Source: Candidatus Adlerbacteria bacterium RIFOXYC1_FULL_48_26 (GTDB taxonomy: Bacteria > Patescibacteriota > Minisyncoccia > Phycocordibacterales > SBAW01). Taken from it: DNA of 64,000 nucleotides. Positions 988 through 64,000 of the stretch are shown piece after piece. Where the stretch lies: positions 2,141 to 66,140 of the forward strand of contig MEXB01000008.1 in assembly GCA_001773575.1 (NCBI GenBank), written 5' to 3'. Below the pieces are notes generated by a model. It did no database searches. It was not told the DNA's origin and was given only the letters and a program-made list of their open reading frames with translations. Numbering within the stretch: position 1 is the stretch's first letter; every line of letters begins with the position of its first letter. A program made the translations under genes and the position numbers.

Positions 988-1623
988 TCAAGGGAACTGA
1001 CCGGTATGTGCGACCTTCTTGTGGAAGATGCAGGATGCGCTGCAGTAGTCCATGACCAACCGCTCCGCATCGGCCGCGAGGGTCGACAGGAAGGAACGGC
1101 GCTGGACACCTGTCAGTTCGTTGTCCCGCACCTTGTTGAGATGGTGCAGGGTGTCGGGGAACTGGGCCGGGCTCACCAGCACGATACGTCCGCCCTTGGC
1201 AGCGGCGCGGAGCATGGTGGGGCCGCCGATGTCGGTCATCTTGATCACCGAGTCGAAGGTTGCGCCCTCCTTGCTGATTTCCTGCTGGAGGGGATACAGG
1301 TCGACGTAGACCAGGTTGATCGGGTTGATCTTGAGCCGTTCGAGTTCCTCGACCTCCTCAGGGTTGGTGAGGTCGGCGAGAATCGCCGCGTGGACTTCGC
1401 GCGACAAGGTGACAACCTTGTGTCCGAGGATGGGCGGCCCGACCATGGTCGCGACATCCGTCACTTGAATCTCCTCGACCTCTCTGAGGAACAGCGCCGT
1501 GCCACCGGAGGCCACGATATTCCATCCTTGGAAGTAGAGGGTCTTGGCGAATTCCTTCAGCTCCGGGGGTTTCGCGTACGACGAGAACAGGGCAGTCCTG
1601 GTTGCTGTGTCAGAAAGGTTCAA
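988..1623 (-). CDS. Stand-alone IMP cyclohydrolase-like protein (PurH N-terminal MGS-like domain only, no AICAR transformylase domain)
   Basis: The 211-aa product aligns by eye to the first ~200 aa of bifunctional PurH (..ALFSSYAKPP / NIVASGGTA..L.. / TLHPKV-like GHKV / VYVDLYP / DIGGPTMLRAAAKG). The gene is visibly GC-rich relative to its flanks. Confidence 0.55.
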   Translation of the reverse strand: MNLSDTATRTALFSSYAKPPELKEFAKTLYFQGWNIVASGGTALFLREVEEIQVTDVATMVGPPILGHKVVTLSREVHAAILADLTNPEEVEELERLKINPINLVYVDLYPLQQEISKEGATFDSVIKMTDIGGPTMLRAAAKGGRIVLVSPAQFPDTLHHLNKVRDNELTGVQRRSFLSTLAADAERLVMDYCSASCIFHKKVAHTGQFP

Positions 1624-4036: not shown

Positions 4037-4750
4037 CTACAAATTACTTACCTCATCCACAATCTGCTTGTAGATTTTTTCAGGGGCACTGTCCGTCATA
4101 ATGCTTCTGCCGACGATGAGGCAGTCGGAGCCAAAGTCGACAGCTTCCTTGGGAGTCGCGGCCCATCGCTGGTCTGAAGGTTGTCCCTGGCTTGGCACGT
4201 AAATGCCAGGCGTCATAAATGGGACGCCCTTCACATACTCCTTCAGTGCGGGAACACCTGGAGCGCTGCATACAATACCCGCACGGATACCGCAGTCGAA
4301 CGCAATGCGTCCAAGATGCAGCTCCATTTCAGCGTGGGTCTTCGTATTACCGTGAATTTCCTGCAGGTCCTTCTCCTGCATGCTGGTTAGCGTAGTGACA
4401 GCAACAACAGCGTCGCCGAACTCCTTGGCCAATTCGGTTAAGGCCTCGCGTCCGCACATGGTGTGTACGGTGGTGAAACGAAAGCCCATCCGCAAATGGT
4501 TCTCGACAGCCTTAAGGACACGGCTGAGAATGTCATGTTCTTTATTGTCGAGCATCACTGTAGCCGATGTGCCTGGGTACATCGACGTGCGAAGGTAGTG
4601 TGCCGTGGCACGAAGGTCCATGCTCGGTAGAGGGTCATGGACTTTAAAGTGCGTGCACCGCTCTTTCTTAAGGCGATGGATCAGGTCGTACGGGGCCTGG
4701 GCCCAGCGGCGGTTCAGGTCGAGCGAAACCATGACGTCAGGACGTTTCAT
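4037..4750 (-). CDS. pyrF: Orotidine 5'-phosphate decarboxylase
   Basis: Catalytic D-x-K-x-x-D present as MLDNKEHD, the upstream Lys as FKVHDP, plus VTTLTSM and C-terminal LIVGRSI, matching the PyrF pattern. GC-rich relative to flanks. Confidence 0.7.
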   Translation of the reverse strand: MKRPDVMVSLDLNRRWAQAPYDLIHRLKKERCTHFKVHDPLPSMDLRATAHYLRTSMYPGTSATVMLDNKEHDILSRVLKAVENHLRMGFRFTTVHTMCGREALTELAKEFGDAVVAVTTLTSMQEKDLQEIHGNTKTHAEMELHLGRIAFDCGIRAGIVCSAPGVPALKEYVKGVPFMTPGIYVPSQGQPSDQRWAATPKEAVDFGSDCLIVGRSIMTDSAPEKIYKQIVDEVSNL

Positions 4751-22044: not shown

Positions 22045-22428
22045 TTACCGTATGGGTGAACCTGCCTGCCGCAGAACAGCTTCGTCGAGCGCCATCTTCA
22101 GCTGCAGTCTTCCCCAGGGCTTCAAAAGAAACAGGGCATTCAGTTTAAGCGTTTCTGCCTCGATGGCGCTGCCTGACTGGATGATGACAGGGATGTCCTG
22201 GATTTCTTTGTAGAAAGGATCCGTGCGGATCTTCCTTGCCACGTCCAGACCGCGCATGTCGGACCCGGTGTCGTTGTCGGTCAAAATCAGGTCGAAGGTG
22301 TTGCGACCCAATTCCACCAAAAGATCCTCTGCTTTGTCGACCGCCACCACTGTGTGGCCAAACTTGCCAAGCAGCGTAATCACTGCCTCGCGAATCTCCT
22401 GCTCGTCCTCTGCAAATAGCACGCGCAC
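22045..22428 (-). CDS. Orphan response-regulator receiver (CheY-like) domain protein
   Basis: Acidic pocket (EDE.., LILTD phospho-acceptor Asp), VIIQSG, and the conserved Lys in LLKP. No output domain and no kinase nearby. GC-rich. Confidence 0.65.
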   Translation of the reverse strand: MRVLFAEDEQEIREAVITLLGKFGHTVVAVDKAEDLLVELGRNTFDLILTDNDTGSDMRGLDVARKIRTDPFYKEIQDIPVIIQSGSAIEAETLKLNALFLLKPWGRLQLKMALDEAVLRQAGSPIR

Positions 22429-31708: not shown

Positions 31709-31713
31709 TTGTT

Positions 31714-31761
31714 GGGGTCAGACCCCGCAATAACCTAAAATCCGTGTCCTAATATTTTAGG
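31714..31761 (+). repeat. REP-like element copy R1: GGGGTCAGACCCC + 7 nt + cctaaaat..attttagg hairpin module
   Basis: Perfect 13-nt palindrome plus an 8-bp inverted repeat, read directly. Shares the consensus with the copies at 32417, 33002 and 52321. Confidence 0.6.
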
Positions 31762-31816
31762 AAAAATTTGCAGTCTCTTGAACGATCTCATATGTGGTGA
31801 GTGCCATACTTCCTAA

Positions 31817-32410
31817 ATGGCACGAATGCATCGCATCGATCTCGGAGGATATATCTATCACGTAATTAACCGAGCAAACGCTCGGATACGTATATTTCAT
31901 AACGATTCGGATTACAAAGAATTCGAATATCTACTTACAGAAATTAAAGAAACGTATAACGTACGTATTCTTGCGTATGCATTGATGCCAAATCACTGGC
32001 ATCTTTTACTGTATCCACGGAATGATGGCGATATGTCTAAAGCTCTTCATTGGTTAACTACGTCTCATGCGCGTCGGCATCATATTAAAAACAAAACAAT
32101 TGGAAACGGCCATCTTTACCAAGGACGTTACAAGTCGTTCATTATCAAGGGAGACAAGCATCTTTTAACAGTGCTCAAATATATCGAGAGAAATCCAGCA
32201 CGAGCAAGATTGTGTAATGTTGCAGAGGCGTGGCGATGGGGAAGCGCGTTTAGAAGGGTGTGTGGAACAACTGCAGAGCAGCAGTTGCTTGCAGGATTGC
32301 CCCTTGATCTACCGAAAAATTACCTTGAATGGATTAATACCCCCGAACCTTCCGAAGAATTGAAAGCCATTCGTCATTCTGTAAATATGGGCGTACCATA
32401 TGGTGGGTGA
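31817..32410 (+). CDS. REP-associated tyrosine transposase (RAYT; IS200/IS605-like Y1 HUH transposase)
   Basis: HUH motif in PNHWHLLL, catalytic Tyr region GHLYQGRYKS, N-terminal YHVINR. 197 aa, which fits Y1 transposases. Confidence 0.75.
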   Translation: MARMHRIDLGGYIYHVINRANARIRIFHNDSDYKEFEYLLTEIKETYNVRILAYALMPNHWHLLLYPRNDGDMSKALHWLTTSHARRHHIKNKTIGNGHLYQGRYKSFIIKGDKHLLTVLKYIERNPARARLCNVAEAWRWGSAFRRVCGTTAEQQLLAGLPLDLPKNYLEWINTPEPSEELKAIRHSVNMGVPYGG

Positions 32411-32416
32411 GTTTCT

Positions 32417-32464
32417 GGTAAAATACTAGAACACAGTTTATTTGTTTTTATGGGGTCTGACCCC
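32417..32464 (-). repeat. REP-like element copy R2 (inverted orientation relative to R1/R3/R4)
   Basis: The reverse complement reads GGGGTCAGACCCC-ataaaaa-caaataaaCTGTGTTCtagtATTTTAcc. It shares ggaattGGGGTCAG and CTGTGTTC-agt-TTTTAC with R3. Confidence 0.55.
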
Positions 32465-32514
32465 AATTCCCCCGGCTGTTCAGAGTGTAATATCTGCCTT
32501 TACTAAGAAATAGG

Positions 32515-32988
32515 TTGTATATGAAAAATAGATTTTATTTTGATCGTTCTCTCACAAATGGAGCTATTATAATTTTAGCCATTGCTTTTACTGCAATGGC
32601 GGGACTCTCTCTTCTTGGAGGTTTTTCAGAACGACCATTCGTGTTTCTGGGAGTTGTTTATTCTATTCTCATTCTCATTTGGTTTGGATTTGCTTACGGG
32701 ATATATATAAATATTGAAGGAAACAGTCTTCAGGTCACACGTTTTTTTATAAAATGCAAGAAAGTTGATTTAGCGAAAGCAATTTCAATACAGCAAAAGC
32801 CAAAATTCGGAGGTTTAATTTATGAAGTCTCCCTGCAATTCCAAGACAATAATGGAAAAATTGATAGTACTGGTCTAATAAACAAACCCGCTCTAAAAGT
32901 AGAGGAATACGAACGACTCGTTAAACTTGTCATTGAAATAAATAAAGATGTAAGTATTGATCCTGATTTACTTAAGAAAGTTTTTTAA
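32515..32988 (+). CDS. Hypothetical membrane protein, possibly YdbS-like bacterial PH-domain (bPH_2) protein; markedly AT-rich
   Basis: Two N-terminal TM helices followed by a beta-rich ~90-aa domain. Lies between inverted REP copies R2 and R3. Confidence 0.35.
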   Translation: MYMKNRFYFDRSLTNGAIIILAIAFTAMAGLSLLGGFSERPFVFLGVVYSILILIWFGFAYGIYINIEGNSLQVTRFFIKCKKVDLAKAISIQQKPKFGGLIYEVSLQFQDNNGKIDSTGLINKPALKVEEYERLVKLVIEINKDVSIDPDLLKKVF

Positions 32989-33001
32989 TAGAATTGGAAT
33001 T

Positions 33002-33049
33002 GGGGTCAGGCACCTCAATACTCTAAAATCTGTGTTCGAGTTTTTACAG
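33002..33049 (+). repeat. REP-like element copy R3 (degenerate palindrome GGGGTCAGGCACC)
   Basis: The second module is conserved (tctaaaatCTGTGTTCgagtTTTTACag). Confidence 0.5.
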
Positions 33050-51890: not shown

Positions 51891-51925
51891 TTGACAAAAG
51901 AACTATATATGTGTATAGTTCTTTT
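51891..51925 (+). promoter_or_regulatory. Consensus promoter (-35 TTGACA 51891-51896; 17-nt spacer; -10 TATAGT 51914-51919) overlapping a perfect 12-bp inverted repeat (aaaagaactata-N6-tatagttctttt, 51896-51925)
   Basis: Hexamers, spacer length and the palindrome read directly. The right palindrome arm contains the -10 element. Starts 8 nt after the tRNA-Ala 3' end. Confidence 0.5.
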
Positions 51926-51956
51926 GTGTTTTAGGATAGTTCCCAAGGAGGCAGTA

Positions 51957-52220
51957 ATGCAGACGAGTCAGCAAGTTATCGAGCAAGCCCTTCGCAATGC
52001 GGAGACTGCGGAACCGGGCATTCAGCCCGCGATTCTGATGAACCTGAACATCGACCACACCAAGGTCGCCGAGTACCAGCGCACGTATCTGAACGATGCC
52101 TGGGCGCCGAAGACCAAGGAGCTGATGGACAGCGGCTTCATCATCTTCCGCATCCAGACCGAGCTCGGCCTCAACGGCCACATCACCTACATCTACATGG
52201 CGAAGATGAAGGCCAACTAA
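51957..52220 (+). CDS. Hypothetical protein (87 aa), GC-rich
   Basis: AGGAGG RBS 6 nt upstream of ATG. Driven by the promoter/operator above and followed by a strong terminator. The ORF-track N-terminal extension overlaps the promoter and was rejected. Confidence 0.5.
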   Translation: MQTSQQVIEQALRNAETAEPGIQPAILMNLNIDHTKVAEYQRTYLNDAWAPKTKELMDSGFIIFRIQTELGLNGHITYIYMAKMKAN

Positions 52221-52290: not shown

Positions 52291-52320
52291 CACCAGTTCA
52301 ATACTCCTATGACCAGAATC

Positions 52321-52369
52321 GGGGTCAGACCCCACAAAATCCTAAATAATGTTTTGTAATTCAGTTTGG
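52321..52369 (+). repeat. REP-like element copy R4 (GGGGTCAGACCCC-acaaaat-cctaaataatgttttgtaattcagtttgg)
   Basis: Perfect 13-nt palindrome identical to R1/R2. The second module is degenerate. Confidence 0.55.
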
Positions 52370-52785: not shown

Positions 52786-52974
52786 ATGAGATTTCTCATT
52801 ACATGTGTTGCTCTAGGGCTGCTGTTGAGTGCGTGTGAAAACACGCCATTCCAATCTGTTTACCCTGAGGATGAGCGGTACCAAGCTTCATGCAGGGCTC
52901 CTGGTCTGTTCGACATCATGAGTCTTCGCATGAAGGCGACCTATTGCACCAAAGGCTACACACCTCCACGCTGA
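52786..52974 (+). CDS. Small lipoprotein (62 aa; lipobox LLLSAC)
   Basis: Signal peptide MRFLITCVALGLLLSAC. AGGAGG RBS 8 nt upstream. Divergent from the 52429-52683 lipoprotein. Confidence 0.45.
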   Translation: MRFLITCVALGLLLSACENTPFQSVYPEDERYQASCRAPGLFDIMSLRMKATYCTKGYTPPR

Positions 52975-53208: not shown

Positions 53209-53991
53209 ATGGAGGAACATGCTGGTTTACACATAGCTCTCTCGGCAGAGCGTTTGGGCACATTTTTAGGTCTGCCTATCACCAACACCCTTCTTTCCGC
53301 ATGGCTGGTTATGTCAGTCCTTATTATCATCGCAATTGTTGTTGGCCGTAAACCAACGCTTATTCCTGGCAAAGTACAGAACTTCTTTGAGCTTATATTC
53401 GAGTTCGTTATCGGCTATATGAGCGATATCTTCGGCAACCGCAAGCGCGCCCTTACGTTTTTCCCATTTATCGCAACGATCTTCCTGTTTATCGCCACTT
53501 CCAACCTTTTCGACTTTATGCCTTTCGTTGGAAGCATCACCTTTACACACGAAGGGGAGACTATGTCCCTGTTCCGCCCAGTTAACACAGACTTAAACGT
53601 CACCCTCGCGCTCGCAATCATTTCTGTGATTACTATTGAAGTCGCAGGCATCGTAGCGCTCGGCTTCTGGAAATACATGAACAAGTTCTTTACCTTCAGC
53701 GGAAAGACCATCGGCCAGCGTTTCCTTAACCTTACAGTCGGCCTTATCGAGTTTGTATCTGAAATGTCGCGCTTTATCTCGTTCTCATTCCGTCTCTTCG
53801 GAAACATCTTCGCAGGCGAAGTATTGCTCGCGGTAGTGGCGTACTTTATGCCCTACCTCCTCCCAGTTCCCCTTATGGGCTTTGAAACCTTCGTCGGCGT
53901 TGTGCAAGCCGCTGTGTTTGCCATGCTCACCCTCTTTTTCCTCAAGCTCGCAATGACCCCGGCCCACGGCTCGGGCGAGGCGCACCACTAA
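53209..53991 (+). CDS. atpB: F0F1 ATP synthase subunit a
   Basis: Five TM helices with the essential Arg in SFSFRLFGNIFAGE. Confidence 0.85.
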   Translation: MEEHAGLHIALSAERLGTFLGLPITNTLLSAWLVMSVLIIIAIVVGRKPTLIPGKVQNFFELIFEFVIGYMSDIFGNRKRALTFFPFIATIFLFIATSNLFDFMPFVGSITFTHEGETMSLFRPVNTDLNVTLALAIISVITIEVAGIVALGFWKYMNKFFTFSGKTIGQRFLNLTVGLIEFVSEMSRFISFSFRLFGNIFAGEVLLAVVAYFMPYLLPVPLMGFETFVGVVQAAVFAMLTLFFLKLAMTPAHGSGEAHH

Positions 53992-56605: not shown

Positions 56606-58882
<2,277 letters not shown>

Positions 58883-58883
<1 letters not shown>

Positions 58884-59119
58884 TGAAACTAATAATCGCA
58901 AAAGTTGATGAACGTGTGTTCGACGGCGACGCCGTCTCTGTTACTGTGCCAGGGAGCCAGGGAGAGATGACTGTGCTTGGAAGCCACGAACCTCTTATCA
59001 CTACGCTTAAAGCGGGGACTATTGTTATTAAACAACTCGCCGACGTAGAACCTATCCAGATTCCAATCCAGGGCGGCATGCTCGAGGTCCGCACGGACGG
59101 CACCACCATCCTTTTGTAG
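58883..59119 (+). CDS. atpC: F0F1 ATP synthase subunit epsilon, short form (beta-sandwich domain only, 78 aa)
   Basis: Operon position (ATGA overlap with atpD) and N-terminal beta-sandwich pattern V.V.G..GE.TVL..H.P.IT.L..G. No C-terminal helical hairpin. Confidence 0.7.
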
Positions 59120-59236
59120 GAAAACCTCCATTCCACGCTATACACAGGTTGCGCTCACGCGCATCTTTGTTATAAAGAAAAAGTAAGTATTCCTAGCGTG
59201 ATGTTTCCTAGATTTTTGTAAAAATGAAGGAGTAGC

Positions 59237-59470
59237 GTGGCGATGAGTAGGATGAGGTCTTTTTGGGAAATGCGGTTCGGTTGGAATAAGCCAGCGTGCG
59301 ACAAGTGTGGGGGAAGCTTCGGCCTTTCTCGCAGACAGGTCGGCAGTAAACAATTCTGCAGACTTGCATGCGTTGCTGCGAACACAAATGGTTCGACAGC
59401 AACTATCTCCACTTCACCTTTGAGAAAGACGGGTGAAGCGGCGATGGAAGTTTCCAACGCGGCCGACTGA
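59237..59470 (+). CDS. Hypothetical small zinc-ribbon-like protein (C-x2-C ... C-x3-C), GTG start
   Basis: AAGGAG RBS 5 nt upstream of GTG. CDKCGG...CRLAC. Confidence 0.3.
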   Translation: MAMSRMRSFWEMRFGWNKPACDKCGGSFGLSRRQVGSKQFCRLACVAANTNGSTATISTSPLRKTGEAAMEVSNAAD

Positions 59471-59528
59471 ATAATCGAAAGGGCGTTTGCGAAAGCAGAT
59501 GCCCTTTTTCTTATGTTAAAATTTTTGC

Positions 59529-60422
59529 ATGACCTTTGCGATTTTAATGTCGCTCATTACTCTCGGGTTGTACTGCGTACAACAACTGGGTGTCACTTTT
59601 GCTGTCGGTGCTGAGACAGTAATGCTTGTTGCATATCTCCAATCAGTTCGTGATGGTGTTGTTGATGAAGAAGAAAAAGGATTTGCTCGTGCCGTACGAA
59701 GCGTTAAGGATTTCGGTTTGTTTTTCATCATCCTCTCTGGAGGCGCTATTTTTGCCAATCAATTTTTTACTGGACAACTTACTGAGTTCCTTTCTATCAC
59801 AGTGCTTTTCAAATGGAGCTTGATAGGCATCGTGCTTTTTATGTCGCTTATTGTGCGCGGACCGTCTCTTGTGGCGGGATTGTTGCAAGGACTTTCTGCA
59901 GCAACGTGGTATGCGCTGTTCGCGGTGCACATTTTGGCACCTGAAGCGCCGTGGGAACAGCTCGTTACGTTCTACGCAGTATGGTTGGTTGGATTCTCTC
60001 TATGTTGGACCATTATTGTGTTTGCACTGAAAGGTAAAAAGCCTGCCTATGTTGCAAGCCCGATAAACGCTGTATCAAAAGCTGCTGTGGTCATTACTCC
60101 TGATAGGGTAAAGCCTGTATTTAAACCTGCACCTCAACCTGTTGTTGCTCCGGCACCCGTGGTGGCATTTGTTCCGCCGGTGACAGTTACTATGCCAAAG
60201 CAGGAAATACCTGTTGCGCCGAAACCTTCAATACCAACTCCTCCTGTGCCACAACCAGCACCTGTGGCAGCAACAATGCCTCCGCCACCTCCTGTGCCAC
60301 CACCACCGCCGCCAAAAGTTTCAGTACCGGCCCCCGCAGCACCTCCGCCACCAGCTTCATGGTTGCATGTAATGCCACGCACACCTCAAGAGCTCGCGGA
60401 ACGAAAAACACAAACGCCTTAA
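59529..60422 (+). CDS. Polytopic membrane protein with a ~110-aa proline-rich C-terminal tail
   Basis: Six or more TM helices, then PAPQPVVAPAPVV...PPPPPVPPPPPPKVSVPAPAAPPPP low-complexity tail. Confidence 0.5.
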   Translation: MTFAILMSLITLGLYCVQQLGVTFAVGAETVMLVAYLQSVRDGVVDEEEKGFARAVRSVKDFGLFFIILSGGAIFANQFFTGQLTEFLSITVLFKWSLIGIVLFMSLIVRGPSLVAGLLQGLSAATWYALFAVHILAPEAPWEQLVTFYAVWLVGFSLCWTIIVFALKGKKPAYVASPINAVSKAAVVITPDRVKPVFKPAPQPVVAPAPVVAFVPPVTVTMPKQEIPVAPKPSIPTPPVPQPAPVAATMPPPPPVPPPPPPKVSVPAPAAPPPPASWLHVMPRTPQELAERKTQTP

Positions 60423-60423
60423 T

Positions 60424-61038
60424 ATGTATTTCTTCAAAGACTCGCCAAAAAAGAAGATAGTTATCTTGCTCGGCCATCCCGACACGTCACAAACGCTGTG
60501 TGGCGAACTCGCGTTGTTATACGAGAGCGCTGCAAAGAAAGCTGGTCACGAAGTGCGACGCTTTAGCATTGGTGATATGAACTTTGATCCAATTTTGCAC
60601 AAAGGATATAAAGCTATTCAACAACTTGAGCCGGATCTTATAAAATTTCAAGACGCTGTTCGTTGGAGTAACCACTTTGTCGTTATCTATCCTAACTGGT
60701 GGTGCACCATGCCAGCCTTACTCAAAGGGTTGTTCGACCGTGTCTGGATGCCAGGTTTTTGTTTTCATATGATTAAGAATGCAGAAGGGAAACAAACAAT
60801 GGGTTGGCATAAATTACTGAAGGGCAGGACAGCTCGAGTGATTGTTACCTCCGGCACCCACCCAGTTCTTATCTATTTATTTTTCGGTGACTATACAAAC
60901 GAGATAAAGAGAGGGATTTTATGGTTTGCTGGGTTTAAAACCAAGCTCACTAAGTTCGGCCCTGCAGAGCATGCGCCAGAATGGAAGCTTAATGAGTGGC
61001 GACGTAAGGTCGTGCGGCTAGGGAAGTTGGGGGAATAG
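60424..61038 (+). CDS. Flavodoxin-like fold NAD(P)H-dependent oxidoreductase (Flavodoxin_2 / NQO-like, cf. KefF/MdaB family)
   Basis: KIVILLGHP....T, ..YPNWW..MPALLKG.FDRV. pattern typical of the family. Confidence 0.65.
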   Translation: MYFFKDSPKKKIVILLGHPDTSQTLCGELALLYESAAKKAGHEVRRFSIGDMNFDPILHKGYKAIQQLEPDLIKFQDAVRWSNHFVVIYPNWWCTMPALLKGLFDRVWMPGFCFHMIKNAEGKQTMGWHKLLKGRTARVIVTSGTHPVLIYLFFGDYTNEIKRGILWFAGFKTKLTKFGPAEHAPEWKLNEWRRKVVRLGKLGE

Positions 61039-61145
61039 CCACTCGACAAATCTCTTTTTCGTGTAATACTTGCCCTCGTTGTGCTCTTTCACATGTGCGC
61101 AGCGTCTGTTAACTTTTCAAAACTATTTCCCCTGAGGAGATGCTC

Positions 61146-61880
61146 ATGATTAGGGTATTAGGCGTAGCTGCCTTTGTTCTGCTGTTCTTGGCAGGATGTG
61201 TCAGCGATGGTGGTGGTCCTGTAACAAGCTCCGCCTACGGACCAGCCGTCGTGGAATCCTGCGGTGGCGATGATGAATGCGCTGTGATGGTCGCCGACCG
61301 TCCCAACGAGGTGCTCTACTTCGCGCCCGGTGCGTCGTGGGCCGCCGGCCCGCTCTACACCGTTCCGTGGGAGCCAACCTACATGCTTCCGTACCGCGTC
61401 CGCTACTACAATGGCTGGGGCGGTACTGTCGTGACCAACACGGTCTGGCGCGATGTCGCCGTTCGTCGGGGCTGGAATCGCTCCGTCGTCGTCGCGCATA
61501 ATGCTCCGAGGGGTGTCATGCCGTTCCGCGGCAACCCCTCGATACGTTTGTCGGACGGTCGTTCGATCGCCTACAACAATCGTCACAGCGCCGTCCACCA
61601 GGTTCGTTTGAACCAGGGTCGCAATTTCACGCCGCGTCCTCCGGTTCACGCTGGTGTGACGCCGCGGCACACAGCTCCGCCGCAGCACACGCGGCCGCCG
61701 CAGCATACGACCCCGTCTCGGCCGCCGACGCGTACGACGGCTCCGCCTTCGCGGCCTCCGCCGCGTGCAACGCCTCCACAACGTCCGCCGCAGCACGTCA
61801 CCACGCCACGTCCTGCTCCTCGGCCGGCCCCGCCGCCTCAGCGTCGCAACTGCGGTGGGCACAACCAGCCCAAGTGCTGA
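61146..61880 (+). CDS. Lipoprotein (lipobox LAGC) with Pro/Thr/Arg-rich repetitive C-terminal half; very GC-rich
   Basis: GAGGAG RBS 6 nt upstream of the second ATG. MIRVLGVAAFVLLFLAGC. The Arg-rich antisense ORF 61158-61862 was rejected as a GC artefact. Confidence 0.45.
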   Translation: MIRVLGVAAFVLLFLAGCVSDGGGPVTSSAYGPAVVESCGGDDECAVMVADRPNEVLYFAPGASWAAGPLYTVPWEPTYMLPYRVRYYNGWGGTVVTNTVWRDVAVRRGWNRSVVVAHNAPRGVMPFRGNPSIRLSDGRSIAYNNRHSAVHQVRLNQGRNFTPRPPVHAGVTPRHTAPPQHTRPPQHTTPSRPPTRTTAPPSRPPPRATPPQRPPQHVTTPRPAPRPAPPPQRRNCGGHNQPKC

Positions 61881-61991
61881 GCAGGCAATCTAACATCCGC
61901 TACAAAGCGCGCTCCAAAAGGGTGCGCTTTTTCTTTTCATAGACTCAACATTATCGGTATTGTATAGTGTGGCCGGAAAGGAGTTCGTCTC

Positions 61992-62264
61992 ATGAATCTC
62001 AAATCGTGTATCGCTATTGCGACTGCTGCGCTGTCTGTTGCTGCGTGCGAGGTACGGCCTCTCTACCAGCCGCCGATAGTCGAAGTCCCCGGCGACTACT
62101 ACTATCCGTACAACTGCTACGAGTTCGGGTGCGCGCGTCGTGTCGTCGTGGTCAGTGGTCGCCGAGGCTACTACATCGGACCGAGGTTCTACCCGTATGT
62201 CGGGCCGGTCTACTATCACGGCTACGGCCCCTGGCGCCGGCCCGTGCGTATCTACTACGGCTGA
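61992..62264 (+). CDS. Small lipoprotein (lipobox LSVAAC), Tyr/Pro/Gly-rich; GC-rich
   Basis: AAGGAG RBS 9 nt upstream. MNLKSCIAIATAALSVAAC... rich in YY/PY. Confidence 0.45.
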   Translation: MNLKSCIAIATAALSVAACEVRPLYQPPIVEVPGDYYYPYNCYEFGCARRVVVVSGRRGYYIGPRFYPYVGPVYYHGYGPWRRPVRIYYG

Positions 62265-62335
62265 AGTTCACTAACCGCCTGAGCCATGTGTTCGGGCGGT
62301 TTTCCTTTTGTTACATAGCTTGTTATAGTCTCTCA

Positions 62336-63436
62336 ATGGGTTTATCTATAGGAATCGTAGGGCTCCCCAACGTGGGGAAGTCCACTCTCTTTAATGCACT
62401 TACTAAGAAGAGTGTCTTGGCAGCTAACTATCCGTTTGCAACTATTGATCCTTCAGTTGGGGTTGTGTCCGTTCCTGACGAACGCGTAGACAAGCTTGCT
62501 GAATTCTCAAACTCTGAAAAGAAAGTTCCTGCTGCTATTGAGTTCGTCGATATTGCAGGGTTGGTAAAGGGCGCCTCAGAAGGTGAAGGTTTGGGTAACA
62601 AATTCCTTTCACATATCCGTGAAGTTGATGCCATCGCCCATGTGGTGCGTATTTTCGATAACACCAATATCATGCACGTAGATGGGGAAGTGAACCCTCT
62701 TCGCGATATTGAAACCATCAACCTCGAACTTATTTTGGCCGACTTGGAAACTGTACAGAAGCGCCTTGAGTCTGTGACGCGTGATGTTAAGCAGGGCAAG
62801 AAAGAGGCGATACTTGAAGAGGGGGCTATACAAAAAGCATTTGCGCTCCTCCAAGAAAGCAGAATGGCAAGTGAGGGTGAATATACACAGGAAGAGCGCA
62901 ATGCTTTGAAAGGTTTGCACTTGCTCACAATGAAGCCAATGCTCTATGTGCTAAACAAAGAAGCGGGTGGGCATAACCTCGATGAATTGAATGACGGCCG
63001 TTTCGAACGCCTCCAAGAATTTATCGACACAAGTGCCGCGTCATATGTTGTTGTTGATGCGAATGTTGAAAGCGAGCTTCGTGAACTCCACGCTGATGAC
63101 AAAACTTCGTTCCGTCAGGAATACGGAGTGTTTGATGATGGCGTAGATGCACTTATTAAAGCGGGGTACCAGTTGCTCGGTCTTATGAGCTTCTTTACTA
63201 CCGGCCCTGGCGAAACTCATGCATGGACTATTCCTGTTGGCTCCACCGCACCAGAAGCAGGGGCTGCTATCCATACAGACTTTTTCAATAAGTTTATTCG
63301 TGCAGAAGTAATCGGCTGGGATACGCTGATTGAGGCCGGTTCTTACCCCAAAGCACGCGAAAAGGGTCTTGTTCGTACAGAAGGCAAAGAATACATAGTT
63401 AAAAACGGAGACATTATCGAATTCTTACATAGCTAA
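62336..63436 (+). CDS. ychF: Ribosome-binding ATPase YchF (Obg-family GTPase-like)
   Basis: G1 GIVGLPNVGKSTLFNALT, G3 DIAGLV.GAS.GEGLGN.FL..IR, C-terminal TGS domain. The ORF-track upstream extension through the GC-rich islet was rejected. Confidence 0.9.
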   Translation: MGLSIGIVGLPNVGKSTLFNALTKKSVLAANYPFATIDPSVGVVSVPDERVDKLAEFSNSEKKVPAAIEFVDIAGLVKGASEGEGLGNKFLSHIREVDAIAHVVRIFDNTNIMHVDGEVNPLRDIETINLELILADLETVQKRLESVTRDVKQGKKEAILEEGAIQKAFALLQESRMASEGEYTQEERNALKGLHLLTMKPMLYVLNKEAGGHNLDELNDGRFERLQEFIDTSAASYVVVDANVESELRELHADDKTSFRQEYGVFDDGVDALIKAGYQLLGLMSFFTTGPGETHAWTIPVGSTAPEAGAAIHTDFFNKFIRAEVIGWDTLIEAGSYPKAREKGLVRTEGKEYIVKNGDIIEFLHS

Positions 63437-63455
63437 AAAGTGGTAGAATCTACCT

Positions 63456-64000
63456 ATGAATAAAACAACCCCAAAAGACTTCTTTCTCTGGGCGGGCGCA
63501 ATGGTCGCCCTCTTCGCAAGCATCGGTGCGTTTATAGGATTGGTGTTTGATTACATAAACTACGCCTTTCCAGATCCTCTCGCATATTACGCAAGCAACC
63601 CATATCAAAGCGGCGTGGCGTACGAAATGTCATCGCTTATTATTCTCGGCGCAGTGTGCATTATATTGATGCGCGTCATCCACAGCACTATCCAGAAAGA
63701 TCCAACTCGTGCAGACATCTGGGTTCGTCGCTGGGCACTGTTCCTTACGCTCTTCGTAGCCGGTGCAGCTATCGCAATTGACCTTATCGTTCTCCTCACT
63801 ACATTCTTGAATGGTGAAGAGCTCTCAGTTCGTTTCCTCTTAAAGGTTGCTGTTGTATTACTTGTCGCAGCGGCAGGCTTTATGCATTTCTGGGCAGACC
63901 TTCGTGGCTACTGGACCGCAAATCCAAAACTCTCAATGCGCGTAAGTATTGCTGTCGGCGTACTCGTTGTTGCAACTATCGTTTCAGGATTCTTTATCCT
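63456..64000 (+). CDS. Hypothetical polytopic membrane protein, 3' end beyond the window
   Basis: ATG at 63456 after ychF. Five or more TM helices. No stop before the window end. Confidence 0.4.
   Translation, partial: MNKTTPKDFFLWAGAMVALFASIGAFIGLVFDYINYAFPDPLAYYASNPYQSGVAYEMSSLIILGAVCIILMRVIHSTIQKDPTRADIWVRRWALFLTLFVAGAAIAIDLIVLLTTFLNGEELSVRFLLKVAVVLLVAAAGFMHFWADLRGYWTANPKLSMRVSIAVGVLVVATIVSGFFI

Follow-up and report, generated by a model that had tools for sequence, protein, structure and literature searches.

The locus considered here raises a simple question: how does a short GC-rich stretch come to lie between two genes of much lower GC content, and what does it encode? It was found in a 64,000-nucleotide segment (hereafter the window) from Candidatus Adlerbacteria RIFOXYC1_FULL_48_26, a member of the CPR/Patescibacteria, and an earlier note had read it as a laterally acquired surface-protein cassette. 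Our analyses suggest that the stretch is probably what now fills a small slot for surface lipoproteins, variable between strains, in a Candidatus Adlerbacteria clade, an explanation that we consider reasonably likely when taken as a whole. The locus is of an ordinary kind, strain-variable and built from orphan proteins; it is not fresh foreign DNA, and current views are not overturned by it.

The variable slot (61039-62324, assigned to neither strand) comprises all of the DNA missing from relatives in which the site is empty. Its limits were set by aligning an occupied lineage (B) with an empty one (E), where identity ends at the stop codon of the upstream flavodoxin-like gene and restarts at ATATTCAT, some 11 nt 5' of the ychF ATG. 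The slot is thus about 1.3 kb long, and its cargo in the window is two small predicted lipoprotein genes. To the left, outside the islet, lies a Flavodoxin_2/NAD(P)H oxidoreductase gene of 204 codons (60424-61038, forward strand; Pfam PF02525, E 5e-27), which was found in all nine lineages compared and whose stop codon is directly followed by the slot. To the right, also outside, lies ychF (62336-63436, forward strand; Pfam MMR_HSR1 and YchF-GTPase_C), whose 366-aa product, read from 62336, matches GenBank OGC88492.1 in every residue. A 489-aa frame with a GTG start (61967-63436) would join part of the islet to ychF as an N-terminal extension; it is a real open reading frame and an artefact as a gene, as the earlier note had held, since it overlaps the second lipoprotein gene out of frame and since ychF in empty-site relatives begins 40-45 nt past the upstream gene, which speaks against any such extension.

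The first gene, ORF1 (61146-61880, forward strand), encodes a predicted lipoprotein of 244 aa with orthologues in lineages B, C and D. It is preceded by a promoter-like site (61043-61070, forward strand; TCGACA, a 16-nt spacer and TG-AATACT) found by consensus scan and of putative function, in which lineages B and D retain a cGACAAA...TGTGTAATACTTG block although the spacer around it varies, and by a Shine-Dalgarno sequence read directly from the DNA (GAGGAG, 61134-61139, forward strand), 6 nt 5' of the ATG at 61146. A further ATG at 61140 would give 246 aa; conservation in lineages B and D places the start at 61146 instead. A signal peptide (61146-61199, forward strand) of host-like GC content ends in the lipobox L-A-G-C, with Cys18 encoded at 61197-61199, and all five members of the ORF1 family satisfy the lipobox rule. 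There follows a conserved core domain (61242-61628, forward strand), which includes the motif ECAVMVADRPNEVLYF and an invariant C39-x5-C45 pair (61260-61280). Beyond the core, a Pro/Thr/Arg-rich low-complexity linker of 74 aa (61629-61850, forward strand; 27 prolines, 36%) differs in length and sequence among lineages and contains an 18-nt tandem repeat (61660-61709, forward strand; 2.8 copies by TRF) encoding PPQHT[RA] units. A co-occurring strain (L009) lacks exactly one such unit (61677-61694), in frame; over 3013 nt this and a single substitution, both in ORF1, are its only differences from the window. The protein closes with the nonapeptide CGGHNQPKC (61851-61877, forward strand; C-x7-C), directly followed by the stop codon, and the pattern C-G-G-x-x-[QE]-P-[KR]-C recurs at the C-terminal end of all five ORF1 homologues. 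As the protein ends at the second Cys of this nonapeptide, it carries no C-terminal sorting signal of the LPXTG, PEP-CTERM, GlyGly-CTERM or MYXO-CTERM types. Past the gene, a scan identified an intrinsic terminator-like hairpin (61904-61930, forward strand; 11 pairs and a T-run) that is conserved in lineage B.

The second gene, ORF2 (61992-62264, forward strand), encodes a predicted lipoprotein of 90 aa with lipobox V-A-A-C and Cys19 at 62046-62048. Its own promoter-like site (61940-61968, forward strand; TAGACT, a 17-nt spacer and TATAGT), likewise from the scan and putative in function, has a -10-like element retained in lineages A, B and C as TGTATAGT, TGTATAAC and TGGTATAAT, and a Shine-Dalgarno sequence (AAGGAG, 61978-61983, forward strand) lies 8 nt 5' of the ATG at 61992. 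In the mature protein Tyr makes up 21%, Pro 14%, and Gly and Arg 13% each, and there is one C-x4-C pair. Orthologues in lineages B and D are 71-80% identical (pN/pS 0.24-0.38), and at least 16 contigs, drawn from several samples, encode exactly this protein. A second terminator-like hairpin (62273-62301, forward strand; 12 pairs and a T-run by scan) follows, its stem CCGCC...GGGCGG being retained in lineages B and D. The earlier description of two co-directional lipoprotein genes is therefore borne out, as predicted genes with their own expression signals; its good ribosome-binding sites, the repetitive Pro/Thr/Arg-rich tail of the first protein (repetitive also at the DNA level) and the Tyr/Pro/Gly-rich composition of the second were all recovered. 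The canonical lipoboxes that it named agree with the general form of bacterial lipoprotein signals, in which a basic n-region and a hydrophobic h-region precede a lipobox of the form [LVI..][AST..][GAS]-C whose Cys falls between positions 15 and 35. By a PROSITE PS51257-type rule, Cys18 of ORF1 and Cys19 of ORF2 qualify, as do 10 of the 11 slot proteins over all lineages. A crude motif scan for Lgt and LspA, covering the 64-kb window, matched nothing. The arrangement suggests that the two genes in the slot are transcribed independently of each other, each from a unit with a predicted promoter-like site, Shine-Dalgarno sequence, lipobox and terminator-like hairpin, whose products would both be lipid-anchored through the N-terminal Cys at the outer face of the cell membrane.

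In searches for relatives of these proteins, neither ORF1 nor ORF2 matched Pfam or NCBIfam at E values up to 1, PHROGs gave nothing, and the sole match in a PDB sequence search was of low complexity (E 0.038). Structure prediction (AF2) on three ORF1 sequences gave a pLDDT of 48 and was unusable; adding a fourth, P0026, raised it to a moderate 70, with a core predicted to be mostly beta-strands with some helices, for which fold searches returned no match. ORF1 is thus without a known family or fold among the profile and fold searches run. The only homologue found outside the clade, the hypothetical lipoprotein P0026 of JGI metagenome 3300079169, came from an exhaustive profile search of 1.84 billion representatives (profile E 2.5e-12); P0027 and P0028, from the same search, were rejected as repeat-protein noise. 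Like ORF1, P0026 meets the lipobox rule (LLAGC) and has the same core, a low-complexity spacer and a letter-identical CGGHNQPKC; unlike ORF1, to which it is 28-36% identical, it has a Gln-rich rather than Pro-rich spacer and one extra Ser past the last Cys, and its GC content of 0.60 is native to its contig (0.61), which cannot be said of ORF1 in its host. Other homologue searches used a word index of 5.8 billion sequences with single-sequence and profile queries. The GTDB species genomes yielded one new locus, JGI metagenome contigs searched with peptide patterns gave no match, a degenerate DNA pattern for CGGHNQPKC matched only the same organism, and a search of the literature on CPR lipoproteins found nothing relevant.

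That the stretch is a variable slot is indicated by its state among relatives, the presence-or-absence check between the oxidoreductase gene and ychF that had been proposed earlier; the unit proved to be accessory and is absent from three related lineages. Both ORF1 and ORF2 occupy the site in lineages A (the window), B (L014) and D (L015). In lineage C (L002), ORF1 is accompanied by an unrelated Tyr/Pro/Gly-rich lipoprotein (type b), which also occurs, without ORF1 or ORF2, in lineages G (L023) and H (L024); most loci are on short metagenomic contigs, and that of H stops just past its lipoprotein gene. The type b protein of C is homologous to those of G and H (z 7.5 and 5.9). As a candidate ORF2 orthologue it was rejected, there being no detectable similarity (z below 2), and it was assigned to a second family common to G and H; ORF2 and type b do have in common their position, a lipobox, their composition and a terminal G-x-WRR motif. 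The slot is empty in lineages E (L016-18), F (L019-20) and I (L025-26), with spacers of 40-45 nt. In a tree of the flank, empty E is sister to occupied B (support 0.95), the flanking-gene DNA of the two being about 91% identical and locus-wide windows mostly 80-100%, and G, of type b, nests among the ORF1-ORF2 lineages (ABDEG support 0.94); this tree was built on one 615-nt gene and resolves the relationships of A, D, G and B/E weakly (0.3-0.54). Between the empty spacers of F and I homology is clear. An empty allele common to E and F/I was considered and set aside, the E spacer not being significantly similar to that of F or I (p ~0.6; an earlier global test of E against F/I gave p ~0.07), and because of this lack of demonstrable homology lineage E may simply have deleted the cassette.

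These patterns could in part be produced by a purely vertical history, in which an ancestor carried ORF1 and one small lipoprotein gene, types a and b being that one gene, and differential loss together with very fast divergence, with no exchange, generated the present states. Consistent with such a history, divergence at 4-fold sites in the islet is similar to that of the flanks for most lineage pairs; derived ORF1 residues common to A and B fit an (A,B) grouping, for which the flank tree, being weakly resolved, leaves room; and the features in common to ORF2 and type b are those expected of one gene. It would, however, require at least four independent losses of ORF1 (in F/I, H, G and E), it leaves a type-b lineage inside the type-a clade, and it makes one gene of two proteins with no similarity beyond composition. 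We regard it as unlikely, while still the most viable of the alternatives. Evidence for exchange was also sought in the ORF1 core, where synonymous divergence between A and B is low (pS 0.34). This is no proof of recent exchange by itself, because neighbouring genes vary in synonymous divergence (atpD 0.33, flav 0.80), atpD and atpC nearby being equally low, and analysis of 4-fold sites gives only a modest difference. In the slot reading that we prefer, homologous recombination in the conserved genes on either side would bring about the gain, loss and exchange of cassettes.

The compositional contrast that drew attention to the stretch was confirmed by windowed GC. The window as a whole has a GC content of 0.475, and 400-nt windows outside the islet average 0.473 (sd 0.035), against an islet peak of 0.68, about 6 sd higher; the flavodoxin-like gene and ychF stand at 0.449 and 0.465. 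ORF1 is at 0.653 (0.67, 0.61 and 0.68 at codon positions 1, 2 and 3) and ORF2 at 0.604 (GC3 0.725). It is the two coding bodies that are GC-rich, rather than one uniform block as the earlier description implied, for the intergenic DNA between them (61881-61991), which holds a terminator and a promoter-like site, is host-like at 0.47. As a separate observation, the window contains a second compositional outlier (988-1623, reverse strand), whose GC3 excess is stronger than that of the islet.

Could these genes be a recent import from a high-GC donor, their composition being the donor's signature? The elevation of GC and GC3 far above the host, the over-use of CCG, ACG, GTC and GCC, the patchy distribution among relatives and the location of the sole outside homologue on a contig of 0.61 GC, adjoining a Zincin_1 gene of 0.65 GC, would all agree with this. 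Against it, the same site is occupied in four lineages, and 4-fold-site divergence there tracks that of the flanks, up to near saturation. All four ORF1 orthologues have a GC content of 0.65-0.75 at 4-fold sites, pairs involving lineage C being nearly saturated at these sites, and polarised third-position changes are balanced, with 35 from GC to AT (S>W) and 33 from AT to GC (W>S), where amelioration would predict 3.2:1 (p = 1e-5). Parsimony polarisation is biased at highly diverged sites, which makes this a rough test; the balanced result is nevertheless conservative, because that bias should inflate S>W in the islet. Since third-position changes are balanced, the GC content of the islet is maintained and not decaying. 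Furthermore, the promoter-like sites and terminators are conserved and host-like in GC, and no close donor was found among the 5.8 billion cluster sequences or the 1.84 billion representatives. Of the features that characterise mobile islands, the slot has atypical composition and variable presence; the islet contains two small lipoprotein genes only and no integrase or other mobility gene, no tRNA lies within 58000-64000, no significant border repeats were found in A, B or D, nor was a deletion scar found (the best local matches being at chance level), and the borders have no Rfam match to a structured RNA. A role as a DGR target gene was likewise discarded, as none of the window's direct or inverted repeats of at least 25 nt involves the islet and no TR/VR-like repeat was found. 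Recent import is therefore improbable, and of the proposal of a laterally acquired surface-protein cassette it is the accessory status and the atypical composition and codon usage that hold, composition as a sign of recent arrival that does not. Given the contig on which the sole outside homologue lies, the ORF1 family may be of ancient origin in a lineage of high GC and have reached the clade at an early date, its present composition perhaps being held by selection or by GC-biased gene conversion at a recombination-prone site.

A still less probable explanation attributes the GC-richness to amino-acid composition alone, with no evolutionary signal. Composition does contribute much: GC2 of ORF1 (0.607) is the highest in the window, and its residues encoded with host codons would already give a GC content of 0.584 against 0.475 for the host. 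The observed value is 0.656, and GC3 exceeds expectation in both genes (0.68 against 0.465, z 7.1, in ORF1; 0.73 against 0.467, z 5.1, in ORF2), the 4-fold-site excess being present in every lineage. About 60% of the GC excess stems from protein composition rich in Pro, Arg, Gly and Ala and about 40% from the choice of GC-ending codons, so that composition accounts for much of the excess and not the whole, a division that also counts against recent import.

ORF1 and ORF2 are genuine genes under purifying selection, and an absence of coding conservation in relatives, named beforehand as the observation that would tell against them, was not what we found. In the ORF1 core, 120 codons compared between the window and lineage B differ at codon positions 1, 2 and 3 in 4, 1 and 30 cases (pS 0.338, pN 0.018 in the sense frame; pN/pS 0.05), while the whole of ORF1 gives a pN/pS of 0.19; across lineages the two genes range from 0.19 to 0.71 against 0.06 to 0.20 for the flanks. 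Antisense frame 0 stays open across the core, and all remaining alternative frames carry stop codons. A 234-aa antisense ORF (61158-61862, reverse strand) was rejected as a gene, its pN of 0.124 and pS of 0.026 being the reverse of a coding signature. That the stretch might hold no genes, but chance open frames in GC-rich non-coding or selfish DNA, is effectively refuted: long shadow ORFs such as this one do occur, and ORF1 is uncalled in the NCBI annotation of GCA_019749995.1, but a strong 3-periodicity of substitutions is confined to the sense frame, homologues 28-87% identical retain the lipoboxes, the Cys pairs and the C-terminal motif, indels are in frame, and Rfam gives no match.

What the proteins might do can be approached through their architecture. 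In ORF1, a globular domain braced by a disulfide may be followed by a low-complexity spacer, flexible or extended, and by a conserved 9-residue, Cys-closed loop serving as a tethered binding tip, and ORF2 may be a short Tyr/Arg/Pro-rich surface peptide, probably sticky. CPR/Patescibacteria presumably live attached to other cells, and to our knowledge almost nothing is known about their surface proteins; turnover of the slot could reflect pressure to diversify the cell surface, exerted by attachment to a host or by phage. Taken further, ORF1 would found a family of tethered-tip lipoproteins with an anchored domain, a spacer of free composition (Pro- or Gln-rich) and the almost invariant C-G-G-x-x-[QE]-P-[KR]-C disulfide loop as ligand or adhesin tip; loop and Tyr-rich partner would attach episymbiotic Adlerbacteria to their host, cassette swaps would change partner specificity, and the swapping recombination would keep GC high by biased gene conversion in a 47%-GC genome. 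We offer this extended scheme as a speculation that is unlikely as a whole.

Several known systems offer partial parallels. The Vlp/Vsp/Vsa-type loci of Mollicutes are multigene families with invertible promoters or homopolymer switches that phase-switch within a clone. The Mycoplasma proteins resemble those of the slot in being small, fast-evolving and strain-variable lipoproteins, in which a low-complexity repeat region comes after a prolipoprotein signal peptide, in changing repeat number in frame between strains, and in belonging to wall-poor or reduced-genome bacteria living on host cells. In contrast to them, the slot is a single site with one or two genes and no sequence or fold similarity, its variation is presence, absence or replacement between lineages, and ORF1 combines a globular core with a C-terminal Cys loop, both of them conserved. 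Another parallel is found in flexible genomic islands or replacement islets, alternative cassettes at one site between core genes that typically encode surface structures: here too the site is fixed, cargo differs or is missing where flanks are 80-99% identical, the cargo encodes envelope proteins, composition is atypical and mobility genes are absent. The slot differs in being tiny (1.3 kb, one or two genes), in that its exchange by homologous recombination is inferred, and in that its atypical composition is at a steady state and does not point to recent import. For the linker alone, Pro-rich spacer proteins of the bacterial envelope offer an analogy: the Pro-rich segments of TonB are thought to work as extended spacers, and the ORF1 linker is likewise long, X-Pro-rich (36% Pro) and variable in length, joining a membrane-proximal part to a conserved terminal element. 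ORF1 nonetheless has no TonB domains or Pfam match and would be anchored by a predicted lipid-modified Cys and not a transmembrane helix, and its family includes the Gln-rich spacer of P0026 and a terminal element of 9 residues only.

The coexistence of occupied, alternative and empty alleles in near-identical backgrounds offers a handle for the population genomics of surface diversification in uncultured bacteria. Furthermore, a GC-rich patch in a mid-GC genome that represents a maintained state, and not decaying foreign DNA, is a caution for composition-based calls of HGT, and could make the locus useful for testing biased gene conversion in bacterial genomes. At the level of annotation, ORF1 is a real gene that NCBI annotation has skipped in at least one MAG.

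The GC-rich site at 61039-62324, between a flavodoxin-like gene (60424-61038, + strand) and ychF, was read in the earlier note as a laterally acquired surface-protein cassette. It is an accessory surface-protein cassette of atypical composition, but that composition carries no sign of a recent arrival; a variable lipoprotein slot, long resident in the clade, describes the locus better. The slot holds two expressed-looking genes under selection, with lipoprotein signals, variable slot contents and a stationary GC. Mean GC of the window is 47.5%, and 400-nt windows outside the islet average 0.473 (sd 0.035), compared with 0.65-0.70 over about 61200-61900 and about 0.61 over 62000-62300. The marked rise described over 61100-62280 is therefore real, but it comprises two separate bodies rather than a single block, divided by a 111-nt spacer (61881-61991) at a host-like 0.47, in which a terminator-like hairpin (61904-61930) is followed by a promoter-like site (61940-61968). 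The GC-rich parts are two co-directional + strand genes, ORF1 (244 aa; 61140/61146-61880) and ORF2 (90 aa; 61992-62264), with a second terminator-like hairpin (62273-62301) 3' of ORF2. Both carry the good ribosome-binding sites previously credited to them: AAGGAG lies 8 nt 5' of the ORF2 ATG, and the ORF1 start is corrected to the conserved ATG at 61146, common to relatives and 6 nt downstream of GAGGAG. The 489-aa ORF from GTG 61967 to 63436 is an artefact that overlaps ORF2 out of frame, and the N-terminal extension of ychF is, as suspected, spurious; the 366-aa YchF, whose start is 62336, matches GenBank OGC88492.1 exactly, a protein recorded from Candidatus Adlerbacteria bacterium RIFOXYC1_FULL_48_26, which is a MAG of the CPR/Patescibacteria obtained from Rifle groundwater.

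ORF1 orthologues were found in three lineages besides that of the window (A), namely B (loci L014, from GCA_019749995.1, and L001), C (L002) and D (L015, JAIEMM010000007.1), which share the order flavodoxin-like gene, ORF1, small lipoprotein gene, ychF. Conservation of coding, whose absence in relatives the earlier note would have taken as refutation, is evident in the ORF1 core, where 120 codons compared between the window and B differ at 4/1/30 first, second and third positions (pN 0.018, pS 0.338). Stop codons occur in every frame of this core except the sense frame and antisense frame 0; in the latter, the sole other open frame, pN is well above pS, and the 234-aa shadow ORF that it contains (61158-61862) was rejected as a gene on that ground. 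Over the whole genes, pN/pS lies between 0.19 and 0.54 in ORF1 and between 0.24 and 0.71 in ORF2, compared with 0.06-0.20 in the flanking genes, and thus ORF1 and ORF2 are genuine genes evolving rapidly under constraint. The public annotation of L014 lists no gene over the 970-nt stretch containing the ORF1 orthologue, which is an intact 251-aa gene (2951-3706 of L014; GCA_019749995.1, JAIEPB010000083.1) missed by the gene calls of that assembly.

The lipoboxes seen in both proteins satisfy the PROSITE-type rule used for the lipoprotein call, as do those of 10 of the 11 slot-encoded proteins across lineages, and both products are predicted, with moderate confidence, to be lipid-anchored on the outer face of the membrane. 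Neither has a match in Pfam, NCBIfam, PHROGs or Rfam. Four parts make up ORF1: a signal peptide whose lipobox is LAGC; a conserved core, at about 61242-61628, in which the C-x5-C pair is invariant and the motif ECAVMVADRPNEVLYF occurs; a spacer of 74 residues; and, directly before the stop codon, a C-terminal CGGHNQPKC. The spacer, 36% Pro with an 18-nt tandem repeat, is the repetitive Pro-rich tail previously described. Only two differences in 3013 nt separate the window from L009, a co-occurring strain, and both fall inside ORF1: the in-frame loss of a single repeat unit (61677-61694) and a substitution at 61870 that turns the otherwise invariant loop Pro into His (QPKC to QHKC), which may be either genuine polymorphism or an error of assembly. 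When 1.84 billion representatives were searched exhaustively with a profile, the sole homologue found beyond the clade was P0026 (a hypothetical lipoprotein from JGI metagenome 3300079169; E 2.5e-12), which has a lipobox, the same core, a Gln-rich instead of a Pro-rich spacer and, despite an overall identity of just 28-36%, a letter-identical CGGHNQPKC terminus. This comparison points to an anchor, a globular domain, a spacer of free composition and a terminal Cys-closed loop as the conserved design of ORF1, which might, tentatively, be a tethered-tip binding protein with the terminal disulfide loop as its functional end. Mature ORF2, Tyr/Pro/Gly-rich as reported, has 71 residues (21% Tyr, with plentiful Pro, Gly and Arg) and a C-x4-C pair, and could conceivably act as a Tyr-rich adhesive partner.

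The proposed search for presence or absence of the islet in relatives was extended, via contigs recovered through further members of the flavodoxin-gene cluster, to nine lineages (A-I), in which the slot is occupied, alternatively filled or empty. ORF1 and ORF2 follow the flavodoxin-like gene in A, B and D; C carries ORF1 together with another Tyr/Pro/Gly lipoprotein of 108 aa, type b; G (L023) and H (L024) have type b alone (137 and 125 aa); and in E (L016-18), F (L019-20) and I (L025-26) the slot is empty, with ychF 40-45 nt further on. Type b of C is homologous to that of G (Smith-Waterman z 7.5) and to that of H (z 5.9), the scores being reached by 0 of 300 shuffles, and shows no detectable relation to ORF2 (z below 2; no BLASTP match). 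A bootstrapped neighbour-joining tree of the flavodoxin-like gene, rooted on C and leaving out lineage I, which pairs with F by identity (94% aa), gave (C,(F,(H,((B,E),(A,(G,D)))))), with support of 0.95 for B+E, 0.94 for ABDEG and 0.96 for ABDEGH. Since G, with type b only, nests among the ORF1+ORF2 lineages, any history of the slot requires several losses or replacements. Between B and E, whose flanking-gene DNA is about 91% identical (locus-wide windows mostly 80-100%), the entire 1.3 kb of slot DNA is cleanly missing from E, from the stop codon of the flavodoxin-like gene to about 11 nt 5' of the ychF ATG. The slot contains neither an integrase nor a tRNA, and no border or DGR-type repeats; cassette turnover probably proceeds by homologous recombination in the conserved flanks. 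For E, plain deletion would be equally possible, as homology of its spacer to the empty spacers of F and I was not demonstrable.

With host codon frequencies taken from 62 other ORFs in the window, the amino acids of ORF1 predict a GC of 0.584, against 0.656 observed and 0.475 in the host, so that roughly 60% of the excess is due to the residues encoded (Pro, Arg, Gly, Ala) and 40% to the choice of codons. ORF1 has a GC3 of 0.68 versus 0.465 expected (z 7.1), and ORF2 one of 0.73 versus 0.467 (z 5.1), with CCG, ACG, GTC and GCC in excess use. GC at 4-fold sites is 0.65-0.75 in all four ORF1 orthologues versus 0.32-0.49 in the flanks, and the excess is still present in pairs with C, which are near 4-fold saturation (identity 0.38-0.42 vs 0.31-0.34 expected); synonymous divergence of the cassette roughly follows that of the flanks. 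Third-position changes in the cassette, polarised among A, B and D by parsimony, number 35 GC-to-AT and 33 AT-to-GC, where decay from 0.70 towards the host value predicts about 3.2:1 (binomial p = 1e-5); the balance is conservative, because the known bias of parsimony should inflate GC-to-AT counts. High GC3 is therefore being maintained and does not represent the fading signature of a donor. Candidates for its maintenance would be selection on the ORF1 and ORF2 mRNAs, or GC-biased gene conversion, a process described in bacteria, at a recombination-prone site. The GC of P0026 (0.60) is native to its 0.61-GC contig, and an ancient origin of the ORF1 family in a high-GC lineage is thus possible.

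The islet, atypical as it is, is not the sole compositional outlier in the window. The strongest is a 211-aa ORF with an MGS-like domain (988-1623, - strand; Pfam E 1.4e-11), whose GC of 0.605 accompanies a GC3 of 0.81 versus 0.456 expected (z 10.7), exceeding the islet. GC-ending codons are also significantly favoured (z 5-5.8) in a response-regulator receiver (22045-22428, -), a 109-aa ORF of unknown function (51891-52220, +), OMP decarboxylase (4037-4750, -) and the ATP synthase a subunit (53209-53991, +); these four additional genes indicate that GC3 heterogeneity is widespread in the genome.

As a kind of locus the slot is already familiar, from variable surface lipoproteins and flexible islets, but the protein families within it are orphans. 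On the searches made, the ORF1 family has five known members and the ORF2 type is confined to this clade. Host attachment or phage pressure may, speculatively, have driven diversification of the slot.

Several further observations concern the surrounding genes. There is no Shine-Dalgarno sequence before ychF (62324-62338 in the window; about 4170-4197 in L014 and 5060-5080 in L016), and a -10-like hexamer ends 6-7 nt 5' of its ATG (TATAGT in the window, TATATT in B, GATATT in E), which together suggest that the ychF mRNA is leaderless; this hexamer, or a position just 5' of it, marks the right edge of the slot. A membrane protein encoded 5' of the flavodoxin-like gene (59529-60422, +), for which Pfam gave no match, has a long Pro-rich end (...PPPPPVPPPPPPKV...) that lifts local GC to 0.57, and is 68-76% identical between lineages whose neighbouring genes are about 90% identical. 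Between A and B, pS in atpD and atpC (57468-59120) is 0.33-0.38, about half the 0.67-0.80 seen a few kb away in the membrane-protein gene, the flavodoxin-like gene and ychF (59529-63436), and the identity of B to E, 96-100% over the atp genes, falls to 84-93% further on; either constraint on codon usage or a recombination mosaic could account for the contrast.

Elsewhere, copies of a palindromic GGGGTCAGACCCC-containing repeat occur as inverted pairs (31712-33045 and 52316-52358), flanking a 197-aa ORF (31817-32410) that by eye resembles a tyrosine transposase of the REP-associated or IS200 type (...HWHLLL...), as well as a very AT-rich, membrane-like ORF of 157 aa (32515-32988; GC 0.325). A 62-aa ORF at 52786 (+) has a lipobox-type signal peptide (MRFLITCVALGLLLSAC...), and a Cys-rich 148-aa ORF (111-557, +) of raised GC (0.546) gives an SLT-domain match too weak for the Pfam cut-off (E 0.0097). 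Immediately beyond the downstream end of the window, its contig encodes a 937-aa leucyl-tRNA synthetase (L003 10254-13067) with a precomputed NUDIX (PF00293) match between its tRNA-synt_1 segments, present in every locus copy among those listed.
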